Shown here piece after piece: positions 4,767-27,344 of a DNA stretch of 43,158 bases (position 1 is its first letter; the number at the start of each line of letters is the position of its first letter). The notes under the pieces are model-generated. The model was given only the letters and a program-made list of their open reading frames with translations. It ran no database searches and was not told where the DNA came from. Position numbers and translations under genes: made by a program. This DNA is from Hyphomicrobiales bacterium. GTDB lineage: Bacteria > Desulfobacterota > Desulfobacteria > Desulfobacterales > SpSt-501. The DNA is taken from positions 1-43,158 of the forward strand of contig JBLMXM010000139.1 of assembly GCA_050257775.1 (NCBI GenBank), read 5' to 3'.

Positions 4767-4773
4767 CGCAACC

Positions 4774-12770: not shown

Positions 12771-12984
12771 GCTGCATGTGAACCCCGCCTACTGCAAAGG
12801 CTGCCTGATCTGCGTGGAGGTCTGCCCGGCCGCCGCAATCAGGCCCTGCGCGACGATCAATTCCAGGGGTCACACCCTGCCCGAGGAAGACGACATGGGC
12901 CGCTGCACCGGCTGCCGGCTGTGTGAAACCGTGTGTCCGGATTTTGCGATCGCGATTGAAACCGACGAAGATCGAGGAGAGTGA
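12763..12984 (+). CDS. 4Fe-4S dicluster ferredoxin (OFOR delta subunit, paralog 1)
   Basis: Start at the ATG at 12763 (MNKLHVNPAYC), overlapping the beta stop. Two CxxCxxCxxxCP motifs (CKGCLICVEVCP, CTGCRLCETVCP). Confidence 0.85.
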   Translation: MNKLHVNPAYCKGCLICVEVCPAAAIRPCATINSRGHTLPEEDDMGRCTGCRLCETVCPDFAIAIETDEDRGE

Positions 12985-13666: not shown

Positions 13667-15208
13667 ATGCATTGGGACACTACCGCCAAGTATGAATTCC
13701 TGCTGAAAGTCACGAATGCGGTCGTCACCCAGACCAACCGCGAGGACATGTTTGCGGCCCTGGCCCGGGAGTTGAAGAAAAGTTTCGCTTACGATCGGCT
13801 GAGCATCTACATATTCATGCCGGACACCGAGGAGCTGGTGTACTTTGCCTCGGCCACCGGCGTGATCCCCAAGAATATGGCCGACCCCTCCGGCCGGCCC
13901 CTGGACAAGGCCTCCATCGCGCGCGAGGTCATCACGTCCAGGCGCCCGGTCTACCTGGAGGACCTGCGCCAGTACCGCCATTTTTCCACGGTGCCGGAAA
14001 TGTTGAAGTCCGGCCTCAAGGCCACCATGGCCTTCCCCCTTATTGTCCGGAAGAAAATTCTCGGCACGATGCACGTGTCCTTCAAGCAAAAACCGGCCGC
14101 ATTCGCTGAACTGGCCAGCGTGCTGAACGACCTGTCCCGGCAGGTCGCGATTGCCGTCGACAACATGTGGGCTCATGCCAGCCTGCAGGAACTCAACCGG
14201 AAGCTTCAGGAGCAGAACCGTTTTCTGCAGCGCCAGATCAAGGGCGACTGGGTCAAGAAAGAGAGCTTCGAATTCGCTTCCCGATCCATGCAGCAGGTTA
14301 TGGAACGCGTGAACCTGGTGGCCGGCACGGCCGCCTCCGTGTTGATTACCGGCGAAACCGGAACGGGGAAGGGCGTGCTGGCGGAATACATCCATGACCT
14401 CAGTCCGGTTCGGGACAACCTCTTTGTCAAAGTGAACTGCCCCGCCCTGGTCTCGGACCTGTTCGAAAGCGAATTGTTCGGCCATTCACGCGGGGCATTC
14501 ACCGGCGCTCACACCCAGCGGATCGGGCGCTTCGAGATGGCCCGGGGCGGGACGGTGTTCCTGGATGAAATCACGGAACTGCCCGTGAGCCTGCAGGCCA
14601 AGCTGTTGCATGTGCTCCAGGACCGCTCGTTTGAGCGGGTCGGCGATTCGCGCCCGATCGAAGCCAATTTTCGGGTCATCTCGGCCACCAACCAGGACCT
14701 GCAGCAAGCCATCGAGAAGGGCCGGTTCCGCCGGGACCTGTACTACCGCCTGGCCACCGTCACCATCGAGCTGCCACCCTTGCGTGAGCGCCGGGAGGAT
14801 ATCCCGATCATCATCGAACGGCTGTCTGCGGTCGAAGAGGCCCATTCCAACCGCCCCATACCGGTTTTCTCGCCGTCGGCGTTGGATTACCTCTGCCGGG
14901 GCGACTGGCCCGGGAACATCCGAGAACTGAGCAATCTCCTGAAAACCGTATTCGTGCTGAGGGCCGGCAAGACCATTTCGGTTGGCGACGTCAAACACTT
15001 CCTGGGGGAGGTTTCCATCAAGAACCCGGAGAATTTGAGCGCTCTGCTTGCTTCGGAAAAAAAAATCATCGAAAAGGCGCTGCGGGAATCGGGCGGCCGG
15101 GTGGCCGGCCCGAGGGGAGCCTCGCGCAAGCTGGGCCTGCCGACTTCGACCCTTCAGTACCGCTTGAAAAAGCACGCGATCAATCCGAAAGATTTCCTTC
15201 CGGCGTAG
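13667..15208 (+). CDS. Sigma-54-dependent transcriptional activator with N-terminal GAF-like sensor domain
   Basis: About 170 aa N-terminal sensor region. AAA+ Walker A GETGTGKGVLAEYIH, GAFTGA motif (SRGAFTGA), C-terminal HTH (ASRKLGLPTSTLQYRLKK). 513 aa. Confidence 0.9.
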   Translation: MHWDTTAKYEFLLKVTNAVVTQTNREDMFAALARELKKSFAYDRLSIYIFMPDTEELVYFASATGVIPKNMADPSGRPLDKASIAREVITSRRPVYLEDLRQYRHFSTVPEMLKSGLKATMAFPLIVRKKILGTMHVSFKQKPAAFAELASVLNDLSRQVAIAVDNMWAHASLQELNRKLQEQNRFLQRQIKGDWVKKESFEFASRSMQQVMERVNLVAGTAASVLITGETGTGKGVLAEYIHDLSPVRDNLFVKVNCPALVSDLFESELFGHSRGAFTGAHTQRIGRFEMARGGTVFLDEITELPVSLQAKLLHVLQDRSFERVGDSRPIEANFRVISATNQDLQQAIEKGRFRRDLYYRLATVTIELPPLRERREDIPIIIERLSAVEEAHSNRPIPVFSPSALDYLCRGDWPGNIRELSNLLKTVFVLRAGKTISVGDVKHFLGEVSIKNPENLSALLASEKKIIEKALRESGGRVAGPRGASRKLGLPTSTLQYRLKKHAINPKDFLPA

Positions 15209-15246
15209 AACCCAATATTGGGTTATAAAAACCAAAATTGGGTTTT
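15209..15246. promoter_or_regulatory. Tandem palindromic sites (candidate enhancer/UAS for the GAF activator)
   Basis: Perfect 16-bp palindrome AACCCAATATTGGGTT (15209-15224), followed by the related imperfect AAAACCAAAATTGGGTTTTT (15227-15246). They lie about 75-110 bp upstream of the sigma-54-like promoter. Confidence 0.5.
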
Positions 15247-15320
15247 TCCTGAGTGTACGCGACCTATCGATTACCTGTCAACTCACTGGAATAGTAATGA
15301 AATAAATTGAGACGCTCGCC

Positions 15321-15336
15321 TGGCATAGATATTGTA
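15321..15336 (+). promoter_or_regulatory. Sigma-54-like promoter for the flavoprotein/Rieske/cytochrome b operon
   Basis: TGGCAT-AGATA-TTGTA. The -24 element and spacing are canonical; the -12 element has TTGT instead of TTGC. It is 86 nt upstream of the ATG at 15422, with palindromes upstream and an activator gene adjacent. Confidence 0.5.
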
Positions 15337-15421: not shown

Positions 15422-17149
15422 ATGACGTTCGAGAAACTGAAGGCCGACATCCTGATCGTCGGCATGGGGGCAGCCGGTCAACTCGCAGCCTTGTACGCCC
15501 ACGACGCTGACCCGCGCCTGGACATCGTCATCGTGACCAAAGCCCTCAAGGGCAAGGGCGGCTGCAGCCGGATGGTGCAGGGCGGGTTTAACGTGGTTTT
15601 GAACTCGGCCGACTCCCACGACAAACACCTGATGGACACCCTCAAGGGCGGGCAGTACATCAACGACCAGGAACTGGCGAAAACCCTGGTCGAAGAGGCC
15701 ACACCCACCATCAAGGAGATGGAGACCCGCTTCGGCTGTTTTTTCGACCGCAACCCCGACGGAACCATTCACCAAAAACCCTTCGCCGGCCAATCCTTCG
15801 ACCGCACCGTTCACAAGGGCGACCTGACCGGGATCGAAATCATCAGCCGCACGACCGAACAGGTGATGAAGCGCAACATCCGGGTTCTGGAAGAGTGTCG
15901 CGCCGTCGATCTCCTGAAAGATGCCTCCGGCCGGGAGGTGACGGGGTCGTTGCTGTTGAATATCCGCACAGGCCAGTTCATCGTCGTGGAAGCCTCGGTG
16001 ACCCTGGTCGCCACCGGCGGCGGCCCGACTCAATATCGGTTTCATGCGCCCGGGCCGGAAAAATCAGTGGACGGCCTGGGCATGCTGTATCGCGCCGGAG
16101 TGGTCATGCGCGATATGGAAATGATCCAGTTTCATCCCACCGGCCTGATCGTTCCCGACAGCGTCGTGGCCGGGTCGCTCCTGGAAGAAGGCCTTCGCGG
16201 CGCGGGCGCGCACTTGCTGAACGGCCAGGGTGAGCGCTACATGCAGCGCTACGCACCGGATCTGGCCGAGCGTGCCACGCGCGACGTGGTCAGCCGCTCC
16301 GCCTTCCTGGAAATGACGGCCGGCCGGGCTTGCAAAGAGGGGGGCGTTCACATTGTGGCCGCACACCTGGGAGCGGATTGGGTTGAGCGCAATTTCCCGG
16401 GCATGTGCAAGCGATGCCGGCAGTTCGGCTATGACCTGGCCCGCGCCCCAGTCCCGGTTTCTCCCTCAGCGCATTTTTTCATGGGCGGCGCCCGGATCGA
16501 CAAGCACGCGAAAGCCTCTTTGCATCGGCTGTTCGTCGCCGGCGAAGATGCCGGCGGCGTGCACGGCGGCAACCGGTTAGGCGGCAACGGCATCTGCGAG
16601 TCATGCGTATTCGGACGCCAGGCGGGCAAGGCGCTGGCCGCCTTTATGCGGGACGACGACCGCCGCCCCCCTGAAACCGCACCCGGTCTGGCGGCGGAGA
16701 CAGCGGCACGACTCATGGGCCCCCTGCAGCGCTCGACCGGCGAAGGCCCGTTCGGACTGCGGGATGAGCTGCGCGAGATCAACTGGTCCAAGGTCGGCAT
16801 CGTGCGCAACGGGCCCGGCCTCGAAGAGGCTTTGGATGCCTTCGTCTCCCTGCGCAGCGCCGCACAAAAAGTCCGGATCACCGGACCTCCAACCTACAAC
16901 ATGCCCTGGAACACATACATCGATCTTCTGAACATGATCGATGTCTCCATCCTATCCGCCTCGTGCGCGCTCGCCCGCCGGGAGTCGCGTGCAGCCCATT
17001 ACCGCAGCGACTGCCCGGAGCAGGACGACGCGAACGGACTTTACAATATCTTTTCGACCCGGGGTCCGCGGGGGATGCCCGAACTGAAGACCGAGCCTGT
17101 CCAGTTCAAATACAAAACCCTTGAGGAATGCCAGAAGTATAAAAAGTAG
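15422..17149 (+). CDS. Fumarate reductase/succinate dehydrogenase-type flavoprotein subunit (SdhA/FrdA-like)
   Basis: ADILIVGMGAAGQ FAD fold. Catalytic motifs FHPTG, EEGLRGAGAHLLN, RATRDVVSR, SAHFFMGGARID and HGGNRLGGNGICESCVFGRQAG. 575 aa. Confidence 0.9.
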   Translation: MTFEKLKADILIVGMGAAGQLAALYAHDADPRLDIVIVTKALKGKGGCSRMVQGGFNVVLNSADSHDKHLMDTLKGGQYINDQELAKTLVEEATPTIKEMETRFGCFFDRNPDGTIHQKPFAGQSFDRTVHKGDLTGIEIISRTTEQVMKRNIRVLEECRAVDLLKDASGREVTGSLLLNIRTGQFIVVEASVTLVATGGGPTQYRFHAPGPEKSVDGLGMLYRAGVVMRDMEMIQFHPTGLIVPDSVVAGSLLEEGLRGAGAHLLNGQGERYMQRYAPDLAERATRDVVSRSAFLEMTAGRACKEGGVHIVAAHLGADWVERNFPGMCKRCRQFGYDLARAPVPVSPSAHFFMGGARIDKHAKASLHRLFVAGEDAGGVHGGNRLGGNGICESCVFGRQAGKALAAFMRDDDRRPPETAPGLAAETAARLMGPLQRSTGEGPFGLRDELREINWSKVGIVRNGPGLEEALDAFVSLRSAAQKVRITGPPTYNMPWNTYIDLLNMIDVSILSASCALARRESRAAHYRSDCPEQDDANGLYNIFSTRGPRGMPELKTEPVQFKYKTLEECQKYKK

Positions 17150-17186
17150 CGGACGGCCATCCCTTTTTGCAGGAAGAGAGACAACC

Positions 17187-17531
17187 ATGCAGACCGAGCA
17201 AACCCGCATCGAATACCGCAAACCCCTTCAATGGGGCGAATTCGACCCGAACCGGCGCAGACATATCTATGTGGGCATGTGGGCCTGGCTGTGGCAGCGC
17301 ATCTCGGCCCTCGCCATCATCGTCCTGCTGGCCCTGCACATCACGCTGACGTACAAGCCGTGGCTGCAATTCCTGCTGCTGCTGGCGGTCACGTTTCATG
17401 CCGCCCTGGGTTTGCGCGTCATTCTGCTGGACTTCAACCTCGTGAACGTCAAATATCAGCGCGCCCTGGTCTGGGTGCTGACCGGTTTAGGGTTAATCGT
17501 CTTCGTCCTCGTCTGGAAGTCCATCTATTGA
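17187..17531 (+). CDS. Small 3-TM membrane anchor (SdhC/SdhD-like)
   Basis: Start at the ATG at 17187 (MQTEQTRIEY...). Three hydrophobic helices with His residues (LALHITL, VTFHAALG). WLWQRISALAIIVLL resembles anchor-subunit helix I. Sits between the flavoprotein and Fe-S genes. Confidence 0.7.
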   Translation: MQTEQTRIEYRKPLQWGEFDPNRRRHIYVGMWAWLWQRISALAIIVLLALHITLTYKPWLQFLLLLAVTFHAALGLRVILLDFNLVNVKYQRALVWVLTGLGLIVFVLVWKSIY

Positions 17532-17569
17532 TGCCAGGGTTTCACGGGTGAGGCCATAAGGAGTCTTAC

Positions 17570-18850
17570 GTGTCGAGCGCTCAACATAACAAACGAAAAA
17601 TCGAAATATACCGGTTCGACCCCACGCAGGGCGGCGAGGGCCATTTCGACCGGTTCGAACTGCCGATCCAGGACGAGACCTGCACCACCATCCTGGATGT
17701 CCTGCTCCGGCTTCAAAAGGAACAGGACCCGAGCTTGTCGTTCCGCTATGCCTGCCGGGTCAACATGTGCGGCTCGTGCGGCATGGTGATCAACGGCCGG
17801 GAGGGACTGGCCTGCAAAACCAACGTGTCCGACTTTCCCGGGGGCCAGACCATCACCCTGCGGCCGCTCAACCATTTCCCGGTGGTCAAGGACCTGGTGG
17901 TGGACATGGGCCCCTTCTTCCAGAGCTACGAATCGTGCCTGCCCTTTTTTGACCCCCGGGAAATCCAACCGGAGCCGGCTATCATACGACCCGATTCCGC
18001 GGAGCGGCAGGCCATCGGCCTCGCTACCGAATGCATCGCCTGCGGCTGCTGCGTTTCCAGCTGCACCATGGTCAATTACCATCCCGGCTACGCCGGACCG
18101 GCGCCGTTGAACCGCGCCTTCACCCTGCTGATGGACAGCCGCGACGGTCTCTATGAGCAGCGCCTGGAGCGGGTGCTGGACTCCTGCTACCACTGCCGCA
18201 CCGAATTCAACTGCACCGAGGTCTGTCCCAAGGAAATCAGCTGCACCAGGGCCATCAAGCACATCCAGCGGCTGGCGATGAAAGGCCCCTTCCGGAGCAA
18301 GGAGGCGGAACCGGCGCCGGGCACGATGCCGCCGGCCGAGCCTGCGTCCGCTGCCGCCGAGGCGGCCTGTGCCGCAGACGACCCCGCCATGAGCCGCCGG
18401 CGTTTTCTCACCCGGCTGACCGCCGGCATCGGCGCCGCGTCCACCCTGCTCGTAGGAGGTGTGCTGGCTTCGACCTTCGCAGGCCCGGGCCTGCGCCGCA
18501 CTCCCCCTCAGTGGATACGGGCCGGAGGCGTGGACGCCTTCCCGGCAGGAGAGGTGTCCACGGTTCGATTGACCTACGCCGAAACCAACGGTTTTTATGT
18601 ACAGGAGATGGCCAGGCCCATCATGGTGTGGCGCCAACCCCAGACGCATGAGTTCGTGGTCTACAGCTCCGCGTGCACGCACTTGGGCTGCACTGTCCGC
18701 TGGGACGCGAATCAGAAGCTGTTCCTGTGTGCCTGTCATGGCGGGGCATTCAACCTGGACGGCAGCGTCAAGTCCGGTCCACCGCCGCGGCCACTGGACC
18801 GCTTGGCGCTTCGGATCGACAGTGGGAACCTCCTGGTCAAGATGGTGTGA
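17570..18850 (+). CDS. Fusion protein: SdhB/FrdB-type iron-sulfur subunit + Pro/Ala linker + TM helix with twin-arginine motif + Rieske [2Fe-2S] domain
   Basis: GTG start with AAGGAG RBS. N-terminal part has CRVNMCGSCGMVINGREGLAC, CIACGCCVSSC and CYHCRTEFNCTEVCP. Then linker SKEAEPAPGTMPPAEPASAAAEAACAADDPA and MSRRRFLTRLTAGIGAASTLLVGGVLAS. Rieske boxes are CTHLGC (18674-18691) and CACHGG (18728-18745). One uninterrupted frame of 426 aa. Confidence 0.85.
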   Translation: MSSAQHNKRKIEIYRFDPTQGGEGHFDRFELPIQDETCTTILDVLLRLQKEQDPSLSFRYACRVNMCGSCGMVINGREGLACKTNVSDFPGGQTITLRPLNHFPVVKDLVVDMGPFFQSYESCLPFFDPREIQPEPAIIRPDSAERQAIGLATECIACGCCVSSCTMVNYHPGYAGPAPLNRAFTLLMDSRDGLYEQRLERVLDSCYHCRTEFNCTEVCPKEISCTRAIKHIQRLAMKGPFRSKEAEPAPGTMPPAEPASAAAEAACAADDPAMSRRRFLTRLTAGIGAASTLLVGGVLASTFAGPGLRRTPPQWIRAGGVDAFPAGEVSTVRLTYAETNGFYVQEMARPIMVWRQPQTHEFVVYSSACTHLGCTVRWDANQKLFLCACHGGAFNLDGSVKSGPPPRPLDRLALRIDSGNLLVKMV

Positions 18851-18851
18851 C

Positions 18852-20279
18852 ATGCCGAAGATGAAGGAAACCATCAGGCATCGCATCGGATGGGAAACCC
18901 ACCTGGAACCCTTTCTGTACAAGAAGCTGCCCGCAAGCCTGGGGTGGTCCGCCACTCTCGGCAGCCTGTGCGCCCTGCTCTTTACCCTGATGGCCGTGAG
19001 CGGAATGTTTTTGGCGATGTATTACAGCCCGTCGCCCGACCGCGCCTACCAGTCCATCGACTACATCATGACCCAACTTCCGTTGGGGCCCATCCTGCGC
19101 GGAATTCATCACTGGGGCGCGGCGGCCATGGTGCTGGCCGTCGTTGCACATTTGGCCACGGTCTTTTTTGCCGGGTCCTTCAAGACCCCGCGCGAGTTGA
19201 CCTGGGTGCTGGGGGTCGGCTTGCTTTTGGCGACTCTCGGGCTCGGTTTCACCGGCTACCTGCTGCCCTGGGACCAGAAAGCCTACTGGGCCACGGTCGT
19301 CAGCGCCAACATCCCCAGGGACATGCCCCTGGTCGGCACAACGTTGACCCGGCTGGTGCTAGGGGGTGACTCGGTGTCGGGGCTCACTCTCACCCGTTTC
19401 TACGCGATCCACATGCTCGTCTTGCCGGCCCTGGCGGCCTTGATGATGGCCGCCCACATCTACCTGGTCCGGCTGCACGGCGTCTCCGAGCGCGGCCCGG
19501 AACCGGATGGGATGCCTCAAACCCCTCAACCGGAATCCCCGCCGCTCTACCGATTTTTCCCGGAGCACACGGCTCGAAGCTTGATGGTGTTTGCGGGGGT
19601 CCTTGCCCTCATCTTGGCTCTGTCGGTGTTCGCGCGCATCCCCAAGGAAGACATCGCCGGAACGGTGGATGAATCTTACCTGCCCCGTCCGGAGTGGTAT
19701 TTCATGTGGCTCTTCCAGTTGCTGACCTATTTCCCGGGCTCCTCCGAGGTGATCGGCAGCCTGGTGCTGCCCCTGGTTGGAGTGCTTTTGCTTTTCTTCC
19801 TGCCCCTTCTGGATCGATCCAAATTCAGGGGGCCCGCCGATCGGCCCCTGGCAACCGCCGCGGGGGTCACCGGGATCGTCTGCATCGTCTATCTCACGGT
19901 GACCGGTTTCGGCGGAGCCCTGCCCTATGGCCGCTACCTCCGGATGCCTGATCGGCCGCTGACCTTTAGTGAAGAAATGGGAATGCAGGCCTATGTCAAG
20001 CACGATTGCGCCTACTGCCACAACATCCAGGGTCAGGGCGGCCGGCGGGTCGGCCCGGACCTGGCCAATATAAAAGCCAAGGGTCGCACGGTCGCGGAAT
20101 TGGTTGCCTTTATCAAGAATCCACAGTCGAAAAGCACGTGGTCCATCATGCCCAAGTACGATCTAACTGAGGCGGAATTGCGAGCCCTGGCGGATTTCGT
20201 GCTTTGCCTCGACTTCGATCGTCACAACGCAAAAACCATCACCAAAGAGGAAATCCTCAAGGGTGTCGTCACGAAATAG
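18852..20279 (+). CDS. Cytochrome b (b6 + subunit-IV-like in one chain) fused to a C-terminal monoheme cytochrome c domain
   Basis: Start at the ATG at 18852, 1 nt after the Rieske-fusion stop. Heme-b His pairs in RGIHHWGAAAMVLAVVAHL and RFYAIHMLVLPALAALMMAAHIYL. Qo motif PEWY (19689-19700). C-terminal CAYCH (20007-20021) with downstream MPKY. Confidence 0.88.
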   Translation: MPKMKETIRHRIGWETHLEPFLYKKLPASLGWSATLGSLCALLFTLMAVSGMFLAMYYSPSPDRAYQSIDYIMTQLPLGPILRGIHHWGAAAMVLAVVAHLATVFFAGSFKTPRELTWVLGVGLLLATLGLGFTGYLLPWDQKAYWATVVSANIPRDMPLVGTTLTRLVLGGDSVSGLTLTRFYAIHMLVLPALAALMMAAHIYLVRLHGVSERGPEPDGMPQTPQPESPPLYRFFPEHTARSLMVFAGVLALILALSVFARIPKEDIAGTVDESYLPRPEWYFMWLFQLLTYFPGSSEVIGSLVLPLVGVLLLFFLPLLDRSKFRGPADRPLATAAGVTGIVCIVYLTVTGFGGALPYGRYLRMPDRPLTFSEEMGMQAYVKHDCAYCHNIQGQGGRRVGPDLANIKAKGRTVAELVAFIKNPQSKSTWSIMPKYDLTEAELRALADFVLCLDFDRHNAKTITKEEILKGVVTK

Positions 20280-20378: not shown

Positions 20379-22532
20379 ATGCAGCATTTCGATTTGGGTG
20401 GGGCTCGGATCGAACCGCCGGAACCTGTCGTGGCCGGATGCTACACCACCCTGACGTTTACTTACACTGCCGGTCATCCCATCGACGACACCGGCTTTGT
20501 GAAGCTTGCGTTTCGGTTTGCCAGCGATTTCGGAACCCCTCAATTCGACTCCCCGCAGCTCCCTAACTACTGCAGCGTAGCCACCACGGGAGACTGCCGG
20601 ATCGAATACCGGTGGGACCCCAAGGGCCACACTCGGCCCTGGGGACGATCCCTGTTCCTGAAGGTCATGGGCGGGTTCCTCGATCGGGGGCAGACGATCA
20701 CCGTCGTCTTCGGGGACAGGTCCGCCGGATCGCCGGGATGGCAGATGCAGACCTTTTGCGAGGAGAGCTTCGAATTCAAGACCCTCGTGGATCCCATTGC
20801 CACCTATGAGTTCAAAGAGCTCCCGCAATCCCCCACCCTTCGCATCGTGGCCGGCCGGCCTGCGCGAGCGGTTTGCATCGCACCCTCTGAGGTCCTACTC
20901 GGCGAGGGCTTCACCTACCATCTCAAACTCGAAGACCGCTGGGGGAATCCCACCGCGCTCCCGGTCCCATTGAATCACCCGGGGCTCAACCGCGCAGGGT
21001 TCTCGCGCCTCACCGCCACCGACGAGACCACCGGCCTGTCGGCTGCCAGCAACCCGGTCCTCGTCTCGGATGGCGCAGTTCGCCTGCGACGTTGCTGGGC
21101 TGATCTGCACGGGCAGTCGGAGGAAACCATCGGCACCAACTCCATCGAGGATTACTTCAGATTTGCCCGTGACTATGCCCGCGTGGACGCTTGCGGGCAC
21201 CAAGGCAACGACTTTCAAGTCACGGACGACTTCTGGAAAACCATCGACAAGACCACCCGGAAATATTACAAACCGAATCGATTCGTCACGTTTCCCGGCT
21301 ATGAATGGAGCGGAAACACTCCGTTGGGCGGCGACCGCAATGTCTATTTCACATCCGAGGGAGGCCGCATCACCCGCAGCTGCACCGATCTCCTGCCGGG
21401 AAAAACTTCGATCTACAGGGATTCCCCCACGGCCGTCCGGCTCTTTGAGAACCTCAATCGCAGCAAAGGCCCCCAACCTTTTGTATTCGCCCACGTGGGC
21501 GGGCGATACGCGGACATGCGGATTCATGATCCGGAGGTGGAGATCGCCGTCGAGGTGCATTCGGCCTGGGGCACCTTCGAATGGCTCGTGGATGACGCGC
21601 TTTCGCGAGGATACCGCATCGGCATCTGCGCCAACTCCGACGATCACAAGGGCCGCCCGGGTGCATCCTATCCGGGGGCCGGGAGGTTCGGCTCCCTGGG
21701 CGGCCTGACCTGCATCCTGACGCGCCGGCTCGATCGCCAGCATCTCTACGACGCGCTCAGGTCCCGTCATTTTTACGCGACAACCGGCAACCGCAGCCTC
21801 GTGGACGTCAGAGTGATCATGGCCGACAACCGCCAGGCCATGATGGGAGATATCGTGGAGGCTGGATCAGGAACTCCGGTGCTGCACGTCGACGTCGCGG
21901 GCACCGCGCCGGTGGAGCGGGTTATCATCCGCAATGGTCTGAAGACGGTGCAGGTGCTGCGCCCTTATAGCCGGGAGGATCTCGGCCGGCGCATCAAGAT
22001 CCTCTGGAGCGGCGCCGAGGTCCGCGGCCGCGCCCGAATGACTTCCTGGGACGGGCATCTCCAGGTAACCGGCAATCGCATCCTGGATGCAGTGCCCATC
22101 AATTTCTGGAACGCCAACCGTCCCATTGTAAAGACCGGCGAAAATCGCCTGGCGTGGACATCGGTCACGACCGGCGGAGTCGCCGGCATGATCCTCACGC
22201 TGGAAAGCCCCCGGGAAGGTTCGATAAGCCTGAAGACGGCCCAACGATCGGTCCGCCTGGCCGTCAGATCGGCAGGGCTGGATCCCCGGACTTGGGCCTG
22301 CGGCGGTCTTTGTAAGAAAATCGAAATATGTCGATTACCCGATCAGCCTCCGCCGCAGGAATTCTCTTTTTCAATCCCGCTGCCCGGCCTGGCGCGGGGA
22401 GACAACCCCGTTTTCATCTGCATGGTCCAGGAAGACGGGCACATGGCCTGGACCAGCCCGGTTTATCTCGTAAAGGGCGGGCTCAAAGCGTCAAGCAGTG
22501 ACCGGAAAAAACGCCCCCGTTTTCCGTTTTGA
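20379..22532 (+). CDS. Large hypothetical protein with PHP/DUF3604-like metal-dependent hydrolase core
   Basis: 717 aa with no signal peptide. After a roughly 230-aa N-terminal beta-rich region come PHP-like motifs: WADLHGQSEE, ACGHQGNDF, PGYEWSG, HVGGRY, EVHSAWGTFEW, ICANSDDHKGRPG and LYDALRSRHFYATTGNR. The family call is made from motif memory only. Confidence 0.6.
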   Translation: MQHFDLGGARIEPPEPVVAGCYTTLTFTYTAGHPIDDTGFVKLAFRFASDFGTPQFDSPQLPNYCSVATTGDCRIEYRWDPKGHTRPWGRSLFLKVMGGFLDRGQTITVVFGDRSAGSPGWQMQTFCEESFEFKTLVDPIATYEFKELPQSPTLRIVAGRPARAVCIAPSEVLLGEGFTYHLKLEDRWGNPTALPVPLNHPGLNRAGFSRLTATDETTGLSAASNPVLVSDGAVRLRRCWADLHGQSEETIGTNSIEDYFRFARDYARVDACGHQGNDFQVTDDFWKTIDKTTRKYYKPNRFVTFPGYEWSGNTPLGGDRNVYFTSEGGRITRSCTDLLPGKTSIYRDSPTAVRLFENLNRSKGPQPFVFAHVGGRYADMRIHDPEVEIAVEVHSAWGTFEWLVDDALSRGYRIGICANSDDHKGRPGASYPGAGRFGSLGGLTCILTRRLDRQHLYDALRSRHFYATTGNRSLVDVRVIMADNRQAMMGDIVEAGSGTPVLHVDVAGTAPVERVIIRNGLKTVQVLRPYSREDLGRRIKILWSGAEVRGRARMTSWDGHLQVTGNRILDAVPINFWNANRPIVKTGENRLAWTSVTTGGVAGMILTLESPREGSISLKTAQRSVRLAVRSAGLDPRTWACGGLCKKIEICRLPDQPPPQEFSFSIPLPGLARGDNPVFICMVQEDGHMAWTSPVYLVKGGLKASSSDRKKRPRFPF

Positions 22533-22596
22533 TTATTCTGTTGCGCCGTGGGGGGCGTGGCTCGGACATCCAACGTCAAAGGAGGCTGAGTTCGCC

Positions 22597-23478
22597 ATGT
22601 CGAGTTTCAACTACGGGATCATCGAGGACGCGGCAAAGGAATTGTACATCCGGGCGCTTTGCGATCTTCCACCGGACGTCCGCGACGCGCTGAAGAAGGC
22701 CTACGCAAGAGAAACCAAGGCCGCCGCTAAAGAGGCTTTCAAAGCGATGCTGAAGGCGGTTGACATCGCCGACCGTCAGAAGACCCTGGTGTGCCAGGAC
22801 ACCGGCCTGCCCATTTACATGGTCAAGCTCGGAACCCGCTTTCACTGGGACGGCGCCGAAATACAGGAGCGGCTCAGCGTCGGGGCCCGGCGCGCAACCC
22901 AGGAGTTCCCCTTCCGCGGGAGCTCCACCCATCCCATCCACCGGGTGAACCCCCAGACCTCGGTGGGCAAGAATCTACCGGTAGTGTATGTCGACTTCAT
23001 CAAGGGCGCGGAGTACCTGGATATCCTCATGGTGCCGAAAGGCTCCGGGTCGGAAAACATGAGCGCCATGAAAATGTTCATACCGGCGGATGGTGTAAAG
23101 GCGATCAAGAAGTTCATCATCGACACCTTCATCGCCTCGGGGGCCAACCCGTGTCCTCCGGGCGTCATCGGCGTGGGGATCGGCGGAACGGCCGACCTGG
23201 TGATGCGGCTGGCCAAGGAGGCCATCGCACGGCCGATCGGCCGGCGCAACGAGGATCCGGACATCGCCCGGTTGGAAACCGAGCTCGAGGAGGCCATCAA
23301 CGCGACCGGAATCGGCGCCATGGGGCTCGGCGGGGATGTCTCCACCCTCGGAGTGCACATCGAGATGGCCTATACCCACATCACGCAGAACCCTGTCGCC
23401 GTGAACACCCAGTGCTGGCCGGCTCGGCGGGCGCGGGCCCGGATCTTCCCGGACGAACGCATCGAATATGGCTATTAG
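22597..23478 (+). CDS. Fe-S hydro-lyase, tartrate/fumarate subfamily, alpha subunit (class I fumarase-type)
   Basis: Start at the ATG at 22597 with AAAGGAGG RBS. LVCQDTGLPIY (CQDTG motif). 293 aa. Confidence 0.88.
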   Translation: MSSFNYGIIEDAAKELYIRALCDLPPDVRDALKKAYARETKAAAKEAFKAMLKAVDIADRQKTLVCQDTGLPIYMVKLGTRFHWDGAEIQERLSVGARRATQEFPFRGSSTHPIHRVNPQTSVGKNLPVVYVDFIKGAEYLDILMVPKGSGSENMSAMKMFIPADGVKAIKKFIIDTFIASGANPCPPGVIGVGIGGTADLVMRLAKEAIARPIGRRNEDPDIARLETELEEAINATGIGAMGLGGDVSTLGVHIEMAYTHITQNPVAVNTQCWPARRARARIFPDERIEYGY

Positions 23479-23767: not shown

Positions 23768-24358
23768 ATGGGGCAGCATCATCTTCAAACACCGTTCTCG
23801 GAAGAGGTTATCCGGAAGCTCAGGGTCGGCGACATCGTCTATTTTGACGGAACCCTTTTTGGAATCCGGGACCTCACCCAGATTTACATGTTCGATCAGA
23901 ACCACGAACCGCCGGTAAGCCTTGCCGGGATGCCCTGCATCCACACCGCCCCCAGTTTGAGGAAAGTCGGCGACCGATGGGAGCCGATCTGCGTGGGAAC
24001 GACCACCAGCGGCCGCATGGATCGGTTCACACCGGCCCTGATCGAACGGTATGGTGTTCGGGCGGTGATCGGCAAAGGCGGGCTGTATGAGGGAAGCCTC
24101 AAGGCCATGCAGAAATGTGGAGCGGTGTATCTCGCCATCGTGGGCGGAGCCGCATCCCTGGAGACCCAGCAGATCGTCGGGGTGGAAGCGGTCTACTGGG
24201 AACACCTGCATCCCGAGGCGCTTTATCAGTTCCGCGTGAAGGACTTCGGCCCGCTCACGGTGGCTATGGACTCGCATGGCGGCCATCTCTACCAGGACAT
24301 TAAGGCGGAGGCTCAGCGAAGACTCACCGAAATTTACAAACGCCTGGGCGTCGAGTGA
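23768..24358 (+). CDS. Fe-S hydro-lyase, tartrate/fumarate subfamily, beta subunit (class I fumarase-type)
   Basis: 196 aa. LRVGDIVYFDGTLFGIRD and RAVIGKGGL motifs typical of the C-terminal/beta subunit. GGAAGGAG RBS. Confidence 0.88.
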   Translation: MGQHHLQTPFSEEVIRKLRVGDIVYFDGTLFGIRDLTQIYMFDQNHEPPVSLAGMPCIHTAPSLRKVGDRWEPICVGTTTSGRMDRFTPALIERYGVRAVIGKGGLYEGSLKAMQKCGAVYLAIVGGAASLETQQIVGVEAVYWEHLHPEALYQFRVKDFGPLTVAMDSHGGHLYQDIKAEAQRRLTEIYKRLGVE

Positions 24359-24842: not shown

Positions 24843-24851
24843 GTGGGCCAC

Positions 24852-26369
24852 ATGGAACTGTTGAATCACATCCTGCTGGGAGCCCAGATCTGTCTGACGC
24901 CGACCAACCTGTTTTTTTGCTTCATGGGCGTACTGATGGGGACACTGGTCGGCGTTCTTCCGGGTTTAGGCCCGACCGCCGCCATCGCCATTTTGCTCCC
25001 GAACACGTTTCATGTATCCCCTGTCACCGCCATCATCATGCTCGCAGGCATATACTACGGGGCCATGTACGGCGGCTCGACCACCTCCATCCTGGTGAAC
25101 ATTCCGGGTGAAGCCGCCTCGGTCATCACCTGCCTGGACGGGTACCAGATGGCTCGGCAGGGCCGCGCCGGAGCGGCGCTGGGGATTGCCGCCTTCGGCT
25201 CGTTCATTGCGGGAACCGTTTCGGTCATCGGGTTGATGCTGGTGGCGCCGCCGTTGGCCAAATTTGCCCTGGCCTTCGGCCCGCCGGAATATTTCAGCCT
25301 GATGCTCATGGGGATTGTCATCCTGATCTACCTCGCGGCCGGGTCCATCCTTAAGGCGCTGATGATGGCCATGTTCGGCTTGCTCATCGGCACGATCGGG
25401 ATGGATACGATTTCAGCCACGCAGCGGTTGACCTGCGGCCTTCTGGAACTCTGCGACGGTGTCGGCCTGATCCCGGCCATCATGGGGCTGTTCGGCGTCG
25501 CCGAAGTCATCGCCAACGTCGAACAGGAAATCAAGAGGGAATTCGTCACCTCCCGGGTTAAGAACCTCCTTCCTACCCTGCAGGACTGGAAGGATTCCAT
25601 CTGGCCTATTCTTCGCGGCAGCTTTTTGGGGTTTTTCATCGGCATACTTCCCGGCCCGGCTCCGGTGATTTCGGCATTCAGCTCGTATGCCATCGAAAAG
25701 AAGCTTTCCAAACACCCTGAAAAATTCGGCACCGGCATGATCGAGGGGGTGGCCGGGCCCGAGTCGGCCAACAATTCCGCCACCGGCGGGGCGTTCATCC
25801 CTCTGTTTACCCTGGGGATCCCATCCAACTCCGTTATCGCCATCCTCCTAGGGGCCTTCATGATCCACGGCATTCAGCCCGGGCCGATGCTGATCACAAA
25901 ATATCCTGACCTGTTCTGGGGCACCATCATCAGCATGTATGTGGGCAACGCCATGCTGCTGGTGCTCAACCTGCCCATGATCGGCATCTGGGTCAAGGTC
26001 TTGAAAGTCCCCTACCCAATCCTTTTTCCTCTGATTCTGCTGTTCTGCCTGATAGGGGTCTACAGCCTGAATTACAGCAAGGTGGAAGTAAGCCTCATGA
26101 TCGGCTTCGGTGTCTTCGGGTATCTGGCTCGCAAGTTCCAGTTCGAAATGGCACCGCTGGTGCTGGCGCTGGTTATCGGGCCGATGATGGAGAGCAAGCT
26201 GCGTCTTTCGCTGGTGATCTCGCACGGCAGCCCGTGGGTATTCATCGAAAAACCGATCTCGGCCATATTTATTTTTATTTCCCTGGCGCTGCTGCTGTCT
26301 CCCATGGTATCCAAGATCAGCAAGCGGCGGCAAAAACTCCAGGAGTTGGTGGAAGGCGAGGACGTATGA
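24852..26369 (+). CDS. tctA: Tripartite tricarboxylate transporter permease TctA
   Basis: About 505 aa, polytopic. MELLNHILLG...GVLPGLGPTAAIAILLP is typical of TctA. ATG at 24852 preferred over GTG at 24843. Confidence 0.88.
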   Translation: MELLNHILLGAQICLTPTNLFFCFMGVLMGTLVGVLPGLGPTAAIAILLPNTFHVSPVTAIIMLAGIYYGAMYGGSTTSILVNIPGEAASVITCLDGYQMARQGRAGAALGIAAFGSFIAGTVSVIGLMLVAPPLAKFALAFGPPEYFSLMLMGIVILIYLAAGSILKALMMAMFGLLIGTIGMDTISATQRLTCGLLELCDGVGLIPAIMGLFGVAEVIANVEQEIKREFVTSRVKNLLPTLQDWKDSIWPILRGSFLGFFIGILPGPAPVISAFSSYAIEKKLSKHPEKFGTGMIEGVAGPESANNSATGGAFIPLFTLGIPSNSVIAILLGAFMIHGIQPGPMLITKYPDLFWGTIISMYVGNAMLLVLNLPMIGIWVKVLKVPYPILFPLILLFCLIGVYSLNYSKVEVSLMIGFGVFGYLARKFQFEMAPLVLALVIGPMMESKLRLSLVISHGSPWVFIEKPISAIFIFISLALLLSPMVSKISKRRQKLQELVEGEDV

Positions 26370-26390
26370 GAAACCGAAAGGAGGGAAATC

Positions 26391-27344
26391 ATGAATAGAT
26401 GGAGAGTGGTTCTCTTGACGACGGCAATTTCTTTCCTTCTAGCCATGAGCGCGGGAGCCGTGGATTTTCCCAAGGGGCCGATCACCTACATGAACCCCTT
26501 TAACCCGGGCGGGGAGGTCGACATCGCCGCCCGGGCCATGCAACCGTACTTGGAAAAAGAGTTCGCCCAGCCCTTTATCATCAACTATCTCCCCGGCGCC
26601 GGTGGTGCACTCTGCTGGTCGAAGCTCGCGGCCGCGAAGCCGGACGGCTACACCATCGGAGGCTTCAGCATCCCGCACATCATTCTCCAACCGATCTTCA
26701 TGAAGGACGTGTCCTACAAGACCGACGACTTCGTGATCTTCTCCATTGTGGAATACACCCCGATCGGCCTGGCCGTTAAGAAAGATTATCCGGTCAACAC
26801 CTTCAAGGAATTCGTCGAATACGCTAAGGCCAACCCCGGCAAAATAAACTGCGGGGGCGTGGGCAAGTTCACGGGCCACCACTTCGCCACCCTGCAGTTC
26901 ATGAAGCTGGCAGGGGCTAAAGTGAATTATGTCACCTTTCAGGGGACGTCCGAGGTCCAGACCGCGCTGCTGGGAGGGCATATCGATGCGGCTTTCACCA
27001 ACTCCAGCCTGCTGGTGACCAGCCGGGACCAGATCAAGGTTCTCGCGATCGGATCCGCCCAGCGGATGCCCCAGCTCAAGGATGTCCCCACCTTCGAGGA
27101 ACTCGGGTTCAAGATGTACCCCCGAATCGCCCGCGGCGCCATGGGCCCCAAAGCCATTCCCGGCGACATCCAAAAGGTGATCGAAAAAGCCTTTCTCGAT
27201 ACGACCTCACAGCCGGATTTCAAGGCCAAGATGGAGAAAGCCGGTTTTGTCCCGCAGGTCATGGGGATCGCCGAATCCCGCAAATTCCTGGAGGCCGAAG
27301 CCGTGACCATCAAGGAGCTGGCCAAAGAATTTGATTTGAAATAG
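26391..27344 (+). CDS. tctC: Tripartite tricarboxylate transporter substrate-binding protein TctC (Bug family)
   Basis: Signal peptide MNRWRVVLLTTAISFLLAMSAGA. Also PITYMNPFNPGGEVDIAARA and NYLPGAGGAL. AAAGGAGG RBS. Confidence 0.88.
   Translation: MNRWRVVLLTTAISFLLAMSAGAVDFPKGPITYMNPFNPGGEVDIAARAMQPYLEKEFAQPFIINYLPGAGGALCWSKLAAAKPDGYTIGGFSIPHIILQPIFMKDVSYKTDDFVIFSIVEYTPIGLAVKKDYPVNTFKEFVEYAKANPGKINCGGVGKFTGHHFATLQFMKLAGAKVNYVTFQGTSEVQTALLGGHIDAAFTNSSLLVTSRDQIKVLAIGSAQRMPQLKDVPTFEELGFKMYPRIARGAMGPKAIPGDIQKVIEKAFLDTTSQPDFKAKMEKAGFVPQVMGIAESRKFLEAEAVTIKELAKEFDLK

Follow-up and report, generated by a model that had tools for sequence, protein, structure and literature searches.

An SdhB-Rieske fusion within a predicted complex II/III machine of about 190 bacterial species

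A complex II/III design in which an SdhB-type iron-sulfur protein and a Rieske protein share one polypeptide is present in about 190 bacterial species and is undescribed in the literature searched. In the window analyzed here, a 43-kb stretch of 43,158 nucleotides, the design is encoded by four co-directional genes whose intergenic gaps of 37, 38 and 1 nt (ORF coordinates) confirm the tight spacing reported in an earlier note on this DNA. The genes specify an SdhA/FrdA-type flavoprotein, a small membrane anchor, the fusion and a cytochrome b/c protein; the domain content first assigned to these products was recovered by Pfam and NCBIfam searches. Judged from these features, the four genes very probably form one membrane complex, with a complex-II-type enzyme hard-wired to a complete menaquinol-type Rieske/cytochrome b/c complex. 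We further infer that the two modules are in contact as one assembly and that electrons flow between them. A six-frame profile search of the whole window found no further SdhA, SdhB/Rieske or cytochrome b homologue, consistent with the earlier statement that no stand-alone SdhB or Rieske gene lies nearby. All features below are on the + strand unless stated otherwise.

The fusion protein (17570..18850; 426 residues) begins at a GTG start backed by the homologue alignment. As proposed, it carries an SdhB domain, a transmembrane (TM) helix and a Rieske domain in one reading frame, with Pfam matches to Fer2_3 (residues 10-117), Fer4_8 (153-223) and Rieske (344-410). The SdhB/FrdB-type domain (residues 1-238; 17570..18283) scores 231 bits against NF004616 (cutoff 228). 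Alignment with E. coli SdhB (1nek_B) assigns C62/C67/C70/C82 to the [2Fe-2S] cluster, C155/C158/C161/C219 to the [4Fe-4S] cluster and C165/C209/C215 to the [3Fe-4S] cluster. A variable Pro/Ala/Glu-rich linker of about 40 residues follows (239-275; 18284..18394), modelled with pLDDT below 50 and no predicted secondary structure. Next comes an internal twin-arginine motif, RRRF, and a single TM helix (276-305; 18395..18484), seen as a hydrophobic segment at 283-301, a modelled helix at 272-308 and a weak Pfam TM_PetC match at 269-307. The Rieske [2Fe-2S] domain (310-426; 18497..18847) is modelled with pLDDT 73-94 and holds the motifs CTHLGC (369-374) and CACHGGAF (387-394). Its nearest structure is the Rieske protein of the Thermus thermophilus bc complex (3fou/1nyk), with the Kuenenia Rieske domains 9rk3 and 9rk4 also among the closest. 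Neither the Ser nor the Tyr hydrogen-bond donor is present in CACHGGAF, so a low-potential Rieske center is expected.

Conservation was assessed in 66 fusions of 34-76 % identity. All eleven SdhB cysteines and the six Rieske ligand and disulfide residues are kept in 66/66, as is G392, with F394 in 65/66. The twin-arginine motif is nearly as constant (R276 66/66, R277 65/66, F279 61/66), while the stretch between residue 237 and this motif is anywhere between 18 and 79 residues long (median 40). With every ligand retained, both halves of the fusion are, on this alignment, under purifying selection. That the cofactor ligands are complete down to 34 % identity supports the proposal of two obligate partner modules sharing a single chain.

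The fourth gene (18852-20279) encodes, as described before, a cytochrome b with an intact PEWY motif fused to a monohaem cytochrome c. Its cytochrome b part (residues 1-365; 18852..19946; Pfam, NCBIfam) joins the b6 and subunit IV portions into a single chain of seven predicted TM helices, with haem b histidines 86/100/187/202; PEWY occupies residues 280-283 (nt 19689-19700), and sequence comparison found no Cys for haem ci in this part. The cytochrome c domain (377-475; 19980..20279; Pfam Cytochrom_C match 377-451) has the haem motif CAYCH at 386-390 (nt 20007-20021) and Met433 as the likely sixth ligand, and the C.YCH and MP.Y motifs are kept in at least 93 % of 59 relatives. The proposed topology, with the Fe-S domain inside and the Rieske domain and haem c outside, holds up because the flavoprotein has no predicted TM helix or signal, RRxF precedes the single TM helix of the fusion, and seven TM helices precede haem c, predicting a periplasmic location for it.

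The second gene (17187..17531) encodes the single small anchor that had been claimed: 114 residues, three predicted TM helices and a Pfam Sdh_cyt match of 31.7 bits (cutoff 25.8). H51 and H71 are both kept in 54/54 relatives. Both align with histidines of the top PDB match, M. smegmatis Sdh2 SdhC (6lum_C), and their placement at different membrane depths is the pattern of that His-bearing mycobacterial anchor. An unfused SdhB of the same lineage adjoins the same anchor type with no cytochrome b gene beside it, so the complex II module may be able to function by itself.

Turning to the flavoprotein (15422..17149; 575 residues; Pfam FAD_binding_2 and Succ_DH_flav_C), the top NCBIfam match is TfrA (500 bits; cutoff 718) and the top PDB match M. 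smegmatis Sdh1 SdhA (7d6v_A). The earlier attribution of all catalytic motifs did not stand, as the FAD-linking His is absent and the active-site Thr is replaced. E. coli SdhA H45, which forms 8-alpha-N3-histidyl-FAD, aligns with Gly47, after which Cys48 is inserted; this flavin-site motif, GKGGCSRMVQGG, is kept in 55/58 relatives. At the position of the active-site Thr (SdhA T254 / FrdA T244) stands Glu255, in the context LLEEGLRG in 55/58 relatives; the His/Arg residues H238, R287, H351 and R385 are all conserved. Gln53 matches the FrdA E49 / SdhA Q50 position and is the SdhA-type residue; Gln (SdhA) versus Glu (FrdA) at this position serves as a rule for direction. Without the flavinylation His, FAD cannot be His-linked and reductase behavior is therefore expected. 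Relatives with non-covalent FAD reduce fumarate only, and the covalent-FAD His is present in every known succinate oxidizer (PMC9557727), which weakens the suggestion that the machine runs in either direction.

A search for the fusion returned 787 homologues at E<=1e-10, and both Fer2_3 and Rieske are present in nearly all of the best 120 of these. The proposed survey of public genomes for the fusion and its four-gene synteny found both widely: 191 species-level genomes were positive in a genome scan, and about 60 of the best 80 loci from them keep the order SdhA-anchor-fusion-cytochrome b/c, an arrangement far beyond chance. The core order is also kept at 39-44 % identity, and the flavoprotein and anchor genes always lie 5' of the fusion, with the cytochrome b-c gene 3' at -4 to +2 nt in four called loci. 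No published account of an SdhB-Rieske architecture was found in a full-text search of the literature, so the impression that no such enzyme had been characterized is borne out as far as that search reached; public annotations of the homologues are generic only. An assembly artefact (frameshift, lost stop codon or chimeric contig) or non-functional fusion, for which no supporting point was found, is rejected as having a negligible chance of being true: the same frame and domain order recur in hundreds of independent assemblies, isolate genomes among them (Desulfosediminicola CP050699.1, Desulfovibrio cuneatus DSM 11391), and purifying selection acts on all ligands in both halves, which together rules out the domain-separating frameshift or stop named at the outset as a refutation.

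Upstream of the core lies a gene for a sigma-54 enhancer-binding activator that carries a GAF sensor domain at its N terminus (13667..15208; Pfam GAF_2, Sigma54_activat, AAA_lid_14, HTH_8), a family that adjoins the core in 36 related loci. Sequence comparison identified a sigma-54-type -24/-12 promoter-like element, TGGCAT-N5-TTGT (15321..15335), 101 nt before the flavoprotein start. In 14 other loci, TGGCAY-N5-TTGC closely precedes the flavoprotein gene; the window copy has GT rather than GC at -12. Two tandem palindromes read from the sequence, AACCCAATATTGGGTT and AACCAAAATTGGGTT (15209..15247; no strand assigned), form a probable activator-binding site; their distance of about 100 nt from the downstream -24/-12 element is typical of sigma-54 promoters.

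Downstream, a class I (Fe-S) fumarate hydratase alpha subunit (22498..23478; likely true start ATG 22597; Pfam Fumerase) scores 308 bits against NF004885 (cutoff 276). The beta subunit (23768..24358; Pfam Fumerase_C) belongs to a divergent subfamily: it reaches 157 versus an equivalog cutoff of 269, scores above the domain model TIGR00723, and has GIRDLTQ in place of TARDEAH plus a 3-residue deletion (compared with 7xky_B, 2isb and 40 relatives). TctA and TctC of a tripartite tricarboxylate-type transporter (24843..27344; Pfam TctA, TctC) are the probable substrate importer; members of this family take up carboxylates as well as sulfoacetate or sulfolactate (PMC10413351; PMC10507020).

We tentatively favor the view that the complex is induced by its substrate and acts as a fumarate-type reductase tied to menaquinone and periplasmic cytochrome c, whose substrate may be a C4 acid or a C3-sulfonate analogue. 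The adjacent sigma-54/GAF activator would switch on the operon as the last section of a C4-acid pathway, in which the class I fumarase would convert malate to fumarate and the flavoprotein fumarate to succinate. Menaquinol electrons would pass through the three Fe-S clusters to FAD, entering by way of the small-anchor haems and/or, once quinol has been oxidized at the outward-facing Qo site, by way of bL/bH, while the Rieske-haem c branch would swap the other electron with periplasmic cytochromes. These paths would make the complex a junction of three partners, namely a fumarate-type couple, menaquinone and periplasmic cytochrome c. Reduction is favored by the missing flavinylation His, given the fumarate-only behavior of non-covalent-FAD relatives, and by TfrA, a fumarate reductase, as the closest curated family; the activator and -24/-12 element support induction. 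Fumarate in particular is suggested by the conserved His/Arg set, a fumarase alpha gene over its equivalog cutoff and 3' of the core in 46 loci, a LarAH5 malate racemase over its cutoff in 3 loci, C4-type transporters near the core, and methylmalonyl-CoA mutase, MeaB and 2-oxoacid:ferredoxin oxidoreductases in the window. Against this reading, a forward-running bc module and a fumarate reductase both oxidize quinol, so that in the reductive direction no product-substrate relation would explain an obligate fusion. The possible independence of the complex II module, the SdhA-like Gln53 and the invariant Cys48, which could form an 8-alpha-S-cysteinyl link, also count against it. The original picture of a machine joining fumarate/succinate, quinone and periplasmic cytochrome c stands for the fusion and its cofactors. 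It is weakened for the substrate: the flavoprotein, like the fumarase beta subunit, is of a divergent subfamily, the active-site Glu and altered fumarase beta motif suggest a non-canonical substrate, and about half of the related loci carry sulfonate-type genes (SuyAB-like, TauE and others).

Those neighbors raise a possible, if somewhat unlikely, alternative in which the flavoprotein and fumarase-like hydratase act on 3-sulfopropanoate, 3-sulfoacrylate and 3-sulfolactate, which are sulfonate counterparts of succinate, fumarate and malate. The membrane complex would couple C-C dehydrogenation to the respiratory chain within a linear route that connects 3-sulfopropanoate with pyruvate plus sulfite, possible in either direction, with a racemizing step (LarA, or Ldh_2 plus 2-Hacid_dh), a SuyAB-like sulfo-lyase and TauE. 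Both enzymes diverge exactly at substrate-holding positions. SAF and GD_AH gene pairs (SuyAB family) adjoin the core in 28 loci, a count that rises once antisense shadow ORFs are included, and one pair is at a 39 %-identity locus (L086); TauE occurs in 21. An Ldh_2 neighbor has L-sulfolactate dehydrogenase as its top match, and a 14-gene one-strand operon (L003) combines SuyAB-type, TauE and sulfonate-type genes with a sulfopyruvate decarboxylase over both cutoffs. In D. cuneatus, the YihU-type sulfolactaldehyde reductase model reaches 323 of the 348 bits needed and an SsuA-type ABC binding protein is present. We know of no described breakdown route for 3-sulfopropanoate. It is newly recognized as an excretion product of anaerobic sulfoquinovose degraders (PMC11659671), and SlcC/ComC racemization is established as preceding SuyAB (PMC10507020). 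However, no SuyAB-like gene lies nearby in the window, Desulfosediminicola (L001) or D. cuneatus (L046), among several well-covered loci; fumarase alpha and LarAH5 pass the fumarate hydratase and malate racemase cutoffs; the active-site Glu is no obvious sulfonate ligand; and the GD_AH and TauE families are broad and matched no sulfonate-specific model.

More doubtful is an oxidative supercomplex, in which a succinate-type substrate would be oxidized and electrons would leave via the Rieske center and haem c. They would run from FAD through three Fe-S clusters and the two haems of the anchor, reaching menaquinone at a site on the periplasmic side in a step aided by the membrane potential as in Bacillus, and menaquinol would pass straight to the neighboring Qo site. 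For bacteria that have menaquinone only, the fusion would thereby overcome the weakness of succinate (+30 mV) as a reductant for menaquinone (about -70 mV). In no other arrangement does one module make the other's substrate, and the bc module resembles a normal forward quinol oxidizer (PEWY, disulfide-bearing Rieske, His/Met haem c). The two-His anchor resembles that of mycobacterial Sdh2; to our knowledge, all known menaquinone-reducing SQRs carry two haems and all host phyla found are menaquinone-only by quinone content. Gln53 is SdhA-type, and the strictly conserved Cys48 could replace His in flavin attachment, although E. coli FrdA H44C reportedly binds FAD non-covalently. Also opposed are the absence of the His universal in known succinate oxidizers (PMC9557727), the many sulfate/sulfite-reducing hosts with no obvious periplasmic acceptor above +30 mV, and a malate racemase neighbor with no role downstream of succinate oxidation.

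Improbable, finally, is a drained Q cycle (quinone-based bifurcation), in which menaquinol oxidized at Qo would send one electron through the Rieske center and haem c to a periplasmic acceptor and the other across the membrane via bL/bH to the SdhB clusters and fumarate, not to quinone at Qi. This would reconcile a reductase-type flavoprotein with a quinol-oxidizing bc module. It has a parallel in the NAD(P)-reducing Rieske/cytochrome b complexes that have been postulated in anammox bacteria, a hypothetical precedent for a cytoplasmic Fe-S flavoprotein on such a complex (bioRxiv 10.1101/2025.06.25.661457), and the Kuenenia structures noted above fit it. Whereas the anammox proteins need >+300 mV, a +30 mV cytoplasmic acceptor would permit the low-potential Rieske expected here. 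Nevertheless, menaquinol reduces fumarate with no need of bifurcation, the scheme still calls for a periplasmic acceptor, the conserved anchor suggests SdhB docking there rather than on cytochrome b, and the variable tether leaves SdhB unfixed relative to haem bH.

Between the core and the fumarase genes lies a recurrent accessory gene (20379..22532; Pfam DUF3604) for a 717-residue DUF3604-like protein with a weak CehA/McbA metallohydrolase match, a family that adjoins the core in 10 loci.

The operon is built from two known kinds of respiratory enzyme, complex II and complex III, and is widespread, uncharacterised and mechanistically puzzling. Its core comprises four genes on the forward strand: an SdhA/FrdA-type flavoprotein (g1, 15422-17149, 575 amino acids), a small membrane anchor (g2, 17187-17531, 114 amino acids), an SdhB-Rieske fusion (g3, 17570-18850, 426 amino acids, GTG start) and a cytochrome b-c (g4, 18852-20279, 475 amino acids), separated by gaps of 37, 38 and 1 nt. 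Parsing with Pfam and NCBIfam resolves the fusion into Fer2_3, Fer4_8, a gap and then Rieske, and the cytochrome b-c into the two cytochrome b parts (N- and C-terminal) with, behind them, a class I cytochrome c. By hydropathy, the flavoprotein has no transmembrane (TM) helix, the anchor three, the fusion one (residues 283-301) and the cytochrome b-c seven ahead of haem c. Since these counts would place the SdhA and SdhB parts in the cytoplasm and the Rieske domain and haem c in the periplasm, the topology proposed in an earlier note on this DNA is upheld. No further gene for SdhA, SdhB/Rieske or cytochrome b emerged from a six-frame profile search of the 43-kb window, in agreement with the same note's statement that no stand-alone SdhB or Rieske gene lies nearby. 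An assembly artefact is ruled out, as is the frameshift named beforehand as the possible undoing of the proposal: the fusion is intact and recurs in many independent genomes, including those of isolates, with the ligands of both halves conserved. As is typical of high-GC DNA, several real genes have long shadow ORFs on their antisense strand, at 17525-18955 (-) and elsewhere in the window. The one opposite the fusion gene, at 476 amino acids, exceeds the true product in length and would be chosen by a longest-ORF gene caller.

The flavoprotein contains the Pfam domains FAD_binding_2 (227 bits) and Succ_DH_flav_C (81.6 bits). It was aligned with E. coli SdhA and FrdA and with M. smegmatis Sdh1, as well as within a 58-member family. 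The catalytic set of E. coli SdhA (H242, R286, H354 and R399) corresponds to H238, R287, H351 and R385, conserved in at least 55 of the 58 relatives. The His that carries 8-alpha-N3-histidyl-FAD is absent from g1; SdhA H45 aligns with Gly47, next to which Cys48 is inserted, and this Gly-Cys motif, GKGGCSRMVQGG, is kept in 55 of the 58. Also absent from g1 is the active-site Thr of the capping-domain hinge (SdhA T254, FrdA T244), replaced by Glu255 in a motif, LLEEGLRG, found in the same proportion of relatives. According to Maklashina et al. (PMC9557727), relatives whose FAD is not covalently bound act solely as fumarate reductases and are unable to oxidise succinate. The closest solved relative is the flavoprotein of M. 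smegmatis Sdh1 (class F, 7D6V; 294 bits), with which g1 shares a 5-residue insertion ahead of the active-site loop. Sdh1 is the only known complex II with a Rieske-type cluster (PMC10238741), but that cluster lies within the membrane subunit and has no relationship to the Rieske protein of bc complexes. Moreover, Sdh1 has no cytochrome b/c partner and retains the flavinylation His and the Thr, whereas g1 has neither residue. Methanogen TfrAB resembles the core in two respects: the fumarate reductase TfrA is the top curated NCBIfam family for g1, and the SdhB-type domain of TfrB is extended C-terminally by a redox module. That extension is, however, a cytoplasmic Hdr-like thiol-oxidising domain, and TfrAB is soluble. 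Membership is rejected because the scores fall short of both equivalogs (TfrA 500 bits, cutoff 718; TfrB 133 bits, cutoff 385).

The anchor matches Sdh_cyt weakly, yet over threshold (31.7 bits; cutoff 25.8). Its nearest structure is SdhC of M. smegmatis Sdh2. Two His residues align with those of SdhC, the first where TM1 reaches the outer side and the second within TM2, and 54 of 54 relatives have both. If the subunit were to pair, this layout would suit two stacked haems. The di-haem menaquinone-linked complex II enzymes of type A/B (M. smegmatis Sdh2, 6LUM; B. subtilis SQR; Wolinella succinogenes QFR) have in common with the core the His/Arg/His/Arg set of the flavoprotein, the 11-Cys three-cluster subunit and the anchor His residues. 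Type A has two anchor subunits and type B one with five TM helices, whereas the core has one anchor gene only, encoding three. The core further differs in the missing covalent-FAD His, the Thr-to-Glu replacement and the continuation of SdhB into Rieske. By sequence, the complex II half is thus nearest to the di-haem menaquinone-linked enzymes and to Sdh1, but it departs from them in two defining flavoprotein features.

In the fusion, the SdhB half passes NF004616 (231 bits against a cutoff of 228). Conservation was assessed over 66 fusions of 34-76 % identity, all of which contain the 11 Cys of the [2Fe-2S], [4Fe-4S] and [3Fe-4S] clusters. Equally invariant are C369, H371, C374, C387, C389 and H390, which make up the Rieske boxes CxHxGC and CxCH and the disulfide Cys pair, while Gly392 and Phe394 are invariant or nearly so. 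Between the two halves lies an RRxF motif (R276 in 66 of 66, R277 in 65 of 66) that is internal rather than N-terminal, is followed by the single TM helix and stands 18-79 residues from the SdhB domain. In an AlphaFold2 model built from 22 close homologues (mean pLDDT 59), which served solely to set domain boundaries, confident prediction is limited to the Rieske domain and a portion of the 2Fe-2S domain; the linker comes out disordered and residues 272-308 form one long helix. An internal Tat motif is also found in actinobacterial QcrA (Streptomyces and Mycobacterium), where the folded Rieske domain is exported once the earlier parts of the protein have been placed. In QcrA two TM helices precede the motif, whereas in g3 it is preceded by a folded domain that lies in the cytoplasm and carries three Fe-S clusters, which raises the question of how a Tat-exported Rieske domain is translocated with such a domain ahead of its signal.

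The nearest structure to the Rieske half is the Thermus bc-complex Rieske, followed by two Kuenenia proteins (9rk3 and 9rk4). In bc1, a Ser and a Tyr of box II donate hydrogen bonds that raise the Rieske potential, and the Thermus protein has a potential of +140 mV. Box II of g3, CACHGGAF, is without both donors, so that its Rieske cluster is expected to be of the low-potential sequence type, below that value. In the cytochrome b-c, H86, H100, H187 and H202 align with cytochrome b6 (b6-like numbering), and at least 93 % of relatives keep them. YLPRPEWY is kept at the same level among 59 relatives, with the Qo-site PEWY at residues 280-283. The fused haem c is a monohaem (CAYCH with Met433), and both CxYCH and MP.Y are conserved. 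A haem ci of the b6f/Firmicute type is excluded because Thr replaces b6 Cys35. The core thus has in common with Thermus bc, Bacillus and heliobacterial b6c and b6f complexes the disulfide Rieske boxes, a twin-arginine signal-anchor, the b6-like His residues and PEWY, and in Bacillus QcrC a cytochrome c is likewise fused after the subunit IV part. It differs in that a 240-residue three-cluster domain precedes the Rieske domain and makes the Tat motif internal, that b6, subunit IV and haem c form one chain with no haem ci Cys, and that the box II donors are missing. As far as sequence can tell, the complex III half has every feature of a menaquinol-type Rieske/cytochrome b/c complex save a free-standing Rieske.

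A search of 5.8 billion proteins returned 787 matches at E<=1e-10; among the top 120, at 57-95 % identity, nearly every one contains both Fer2_3 and Rieske. They include proteins from Desulfosediminicola isolates and from metagenome-assembled genomes of Desulfobacterales, Nitrospirae and others, all under generic names. At 50 % clustering, only about six full-length fusion clusters are present among 1.84 billion representatives, and in the same search the closest unfused SdhB shows 52 % identity. The earlier note had proposed looking in public genomes for the fusion and the four-gene order, and both were found. An alignment of the junction and the Rieske half, scanned against one genome per species for 185,579 species, identified 191 fusion-positive genomes. 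Their best 80 loci belong to Desulfobacterales, Desulfocapsaceae, Desulfobaccales and Desulfovibrionaceae (the last including Desulfovibrio cuneatus DSM 11391, Bilophila and Mailhella) and to Acidobacteriota, Nitrospirota, Planctomycetota, Sumerlaeota and Myxococcota. To our knowledge, all of these groups are menaquinone-only. Experiments are made feasible by the cultured carriers D. cuneatus DSM 11391 and Desulfosediminicola.

When the ORFs of 85 loci were clustered, the order flavoprotein, anchor, fusion, cytochrome b-c proved fixed in about 60. Among called genes, the cytochrome b-c start lies -4 to +2 nt from the fusion stop, suggesting translational coupling of the two. On a single short contig (L085), that closest unfused SdhB (347-1090; 52 % identity) follows the same small-anchor type. 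Downstream, at 1385-3244, a 620-amino-acid protein with an N-terminal CxxCH, a TM helix and HEAT-like helical repeats is encoded instead of a cytochrome b; it may be an alternative periplasmic partner of the unfused SdhB. Because this unfused lineage exists, together with variants without adjacent cytochrome b or fumarase, the SdhB-Rieske fusion looks derived.

Class I fumarase alpha and beta genes adjoin the core in at least 46 and at least 40 loci, respectively, and antisense shadow ORFs add more. For the alpha subunit, the score lies over the cutoff of the fumarate hydratase equivalog NF004885 (308 against 276 bits). The beta subunit (23768-24358 in the window) falls below the fumarase equivalog (157 against 269 bits) and clears the domain model TIGR00723 alone. 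At the site of TARDEAH in archaeal fumarases, 39 of 40 beta relatives have GIRD[LA]TQ, with a 3-residue deletion and His replaced by Gln; the fortieth is N-terminally truncated. The operon-linked beta subunits make up a distinct subfamily. Between the cytochrome b-c and fumarase genes lies a DUF3604-like protein of 717 amino acids (20379-22532, +) with a weak match to the CehA/McbA metallohydrolases; its family adjoins the core in 10 loci including the window, mostly in Acidobacteriota and the closest relatives of the window.

A GAF/sigma-54 activator gene adjoins the core in 36 loci. In the window, two tandem palindromes, AACCCAATATTGGGTT and AACCAAAATTGGGTT (15209-15247), begin directly after the activator stop codon. 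Downstream of them, 101 nt upstream of the flavoprotein gene, lies TGGCAT-N5-TTGT (15321-15335), a sigma-54-like -24/-12 element with GT for GC at -12. Fourteen other loci have TGGCAY-N5-TTGC ahead of the flavoprotein gene.

A second group of neighbours is formed by SAF and GD_AH pairs, present in at least 28 loci, and by the TauE permease/exporter family, present in 21. The pairs resemble SuyAB of the sulfolactate sulfo-lyase family, an assignment made with profile libraries that contain no sulfonate-specific model. Both kinds of neighbour recur (L003/L067, L027, L086, L007, L018, L022 and others). L086, at 39 % identity, has the pair, fumarase and the core in one operon, and L003 has a 14-gene operon of core, SAF and GD_AH, TauE, Ldh_2, 2-Hacid_dh and an SsuA-type ABC transporter, beside which a sulfopyruvate decarboxylase gene scores over its cutoffs. 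These neighbours suggest a link to organosulfonate metabolism. Other recurrent neighbours include carboxylate- or sulfonate-type transporters and pairs of Ldh_2 and 2-Hacid_dh, while LarAH5 malate racemase is found over cutoff in 3 loci and glutamate mutase in 4. In cultured D. cuneatus DSM 11391 (L046), a beta-hydroxyacid dehydrogenase gene at 6088-7053, scoring 323 bits against a sulfolactaldehyde 3-reductase cutoff of 348, sits between a TRAP transporter and the core flavoprotein gene.

The best explanation, a tentative one, is that the core works as a reductase module of the fumarate type, induced by its substrate and linked to menaquinone and to cytochrome c in the periplasm. It is favoured because the flavinylation His is missing, the flavoprotein is TfrA-like, a fumarase is adjacent and malate racemase accompanies some relatives. 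The context of the window argues for it too, since methylmalonyl-CoA mutase and MeaB (27410-30396, -) and two sets of 2-oxoacid:ferredoxin oxidoreductase genes (10765-12984, + and 31970-34453, -) are present. With a weakly matching methylmalonyl-CoA-epimerase-like glyoxalase-fold protein (12988-13443, +), these constitute succinate/propionate pathway equipment around the operon. The cofactors would fit an electron path through FAD, [2Fe-2S], [4Fe-4S], [3Fe-4S], anchor haem(s), menaquinone, Qo, Rieske and haem c, with bL/bH as a second branch. How menaquinone-only anaerobes handle an awkward couple of the fumarate/succinate type, at +30 mV, is one question that the operon raises. Textbook complexes II and III are normally joined solely via the diffusible quinone pool. 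Here they are joined by a peptide bond, with all cofactor sites intact over at least six phyla, implying a functional coupling that models of neither enzyme predict. A fumarate-type reductase leaves the obligate fusion unexplained, since quinol is the substrate of a fumarate reductase and of a bc complex running forward alike, and for this reason three rival explanations are proposed.

The first, rather unlikely though it draws on the neighbour sets and above all on L003, is that the core and hydratase act on 3-sulfopropanoate, 3-sulfoacrylate and 3-sulfolactate, in either direction. A linear pathway would then run through dehydrogenase, hydratase, a racemising step, the SuyAB-like lyase and TauE. 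Divergence of both the flavoprotein and the fumarase at substrate-holding positions is consistent with a substrate of this kind; the absence of a SuyAB-like gene from the window and from some well-covered loci counts against it. We know of no earlier respiratory-chain-linked organosulfonate C-C dehydrogenase, and with a sulfonate substrate the core would be the first. Anaerobes that degrade sulfoquinovose have recently been found to excrete 3-sulfopropanoate (PMC11659671), for which the core would supply the missing route, filling a gap in the anaerobic sulfur cycle that extends to gut Desulfovibrionaceae.

In the second, which is unlikely, the enzyme works oxidatively as a II-to-III supercomplex whose anchor reduces menaquinone at the outer side and hands the product to Qo. 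No other scheme gives the two modules a product-substrate relation, and it would suit menaquinone-only hosts, but it requires a covalent flavin, perhaps attached via Cys48. The third, improbable scheme is a drained Q cycle in which the bL/bH electrons end on fumarate. It mirrors a proposal for anammox bacteria, where Rieske/cytochrome b is encoded with a cytoplasmic NAD(P) oxidoreductase (Kuenenia kuste4569-4574 and kustd1480-1485), a layout that prompted the idea that b-haem electrons exit to a soluble substrate (bioRxiv 10.1101/2025.06.25.661457). The likeness is one of general layout only, a Rieske/cytochrome b core with an Fe-S flavoprotein on the cytoplasmic side. The anammox partner is an unfused NAD(P) oxidoreductase, whereas that of the core is of the Sdh/Frd type and covalently tethered. 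The anammox complexes have multihaem c and HAO-like subunits, haem cN and a Rieske above +300 mV, in contrast to the monohaem c and low-potential-type Rieske of the core, and box II reads CPCHGS in Kuenenia 9rk3/9rk4 and CACHGG in g3. Membership of the anammox-type class is rejected on partner type, monohaem c and box II sequence. The core also raises the question of whether a cytoplasmic reductase can receive electrons from the b haems of a Rieske/cytochrome b complex, hitherto only proposed for anammox.

Two further schemes fare worse on calculated energetics. Mitchell-type injection of succinate electrons at Qi is unlikely because, in moving 2 charges per 2 electrons, it would require haem c at or above about +200 mV, while the Rieske is predicted to lie below +140 mV and the Rieske/c chain near +100 mV. 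A full Q cycle returning Rieske/c electrons via the anchor to fumarate is excluded on thermodynamics, since 4 charges per 2 electrons would require about 0.3 V at a proton-motive force of 150 mV and the menaquinol-to-fumarate span is only about 0.10 V (textbook potentials).

Taken at its broadest, the core could be a new energy-converting enzyme in which a succinate-like acid, maybe 3-sulfopropanoate/3-sulfoacrylate, is reduced (or oxidised) in direct coupling with quinol oxidation at Qo, although this is doubtful. Rieske/cytochrome b electron flow would then be wired through a peptide bond to a cytoplasmic substrate reductase or dehydrogenase. An I-II-III2-IV2 respiratory supercomplex that contains complex II has reportedly been described. 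In Mitchell's original Q cycle, succinate dehydrogenase was the second donor at centre N (Dibrova et al., PMC5600118). Both treat complexes II and III as one unit, but the association is non-covalent or the scheme superseded, whereas the core has a peptide bond. A review of non-canonical complex II covers classes A-F and supercomplexes, none like the SdhB-Rieske fusion (PMC10238741), and no description of the fusion was found in about 8.3 million full texts, a set that does not cover one relevant subscription paper.

Elsewhere in the window, a multicopper oxidase (34-1773, -), a PAS histidine kinase with a sigma-54 response regulator (3390-6573, -) and a tungsten-type aldehyde:ferredoxin oxidoreductase (40367-42259, -) are encoded, with no evident tie to the operon.
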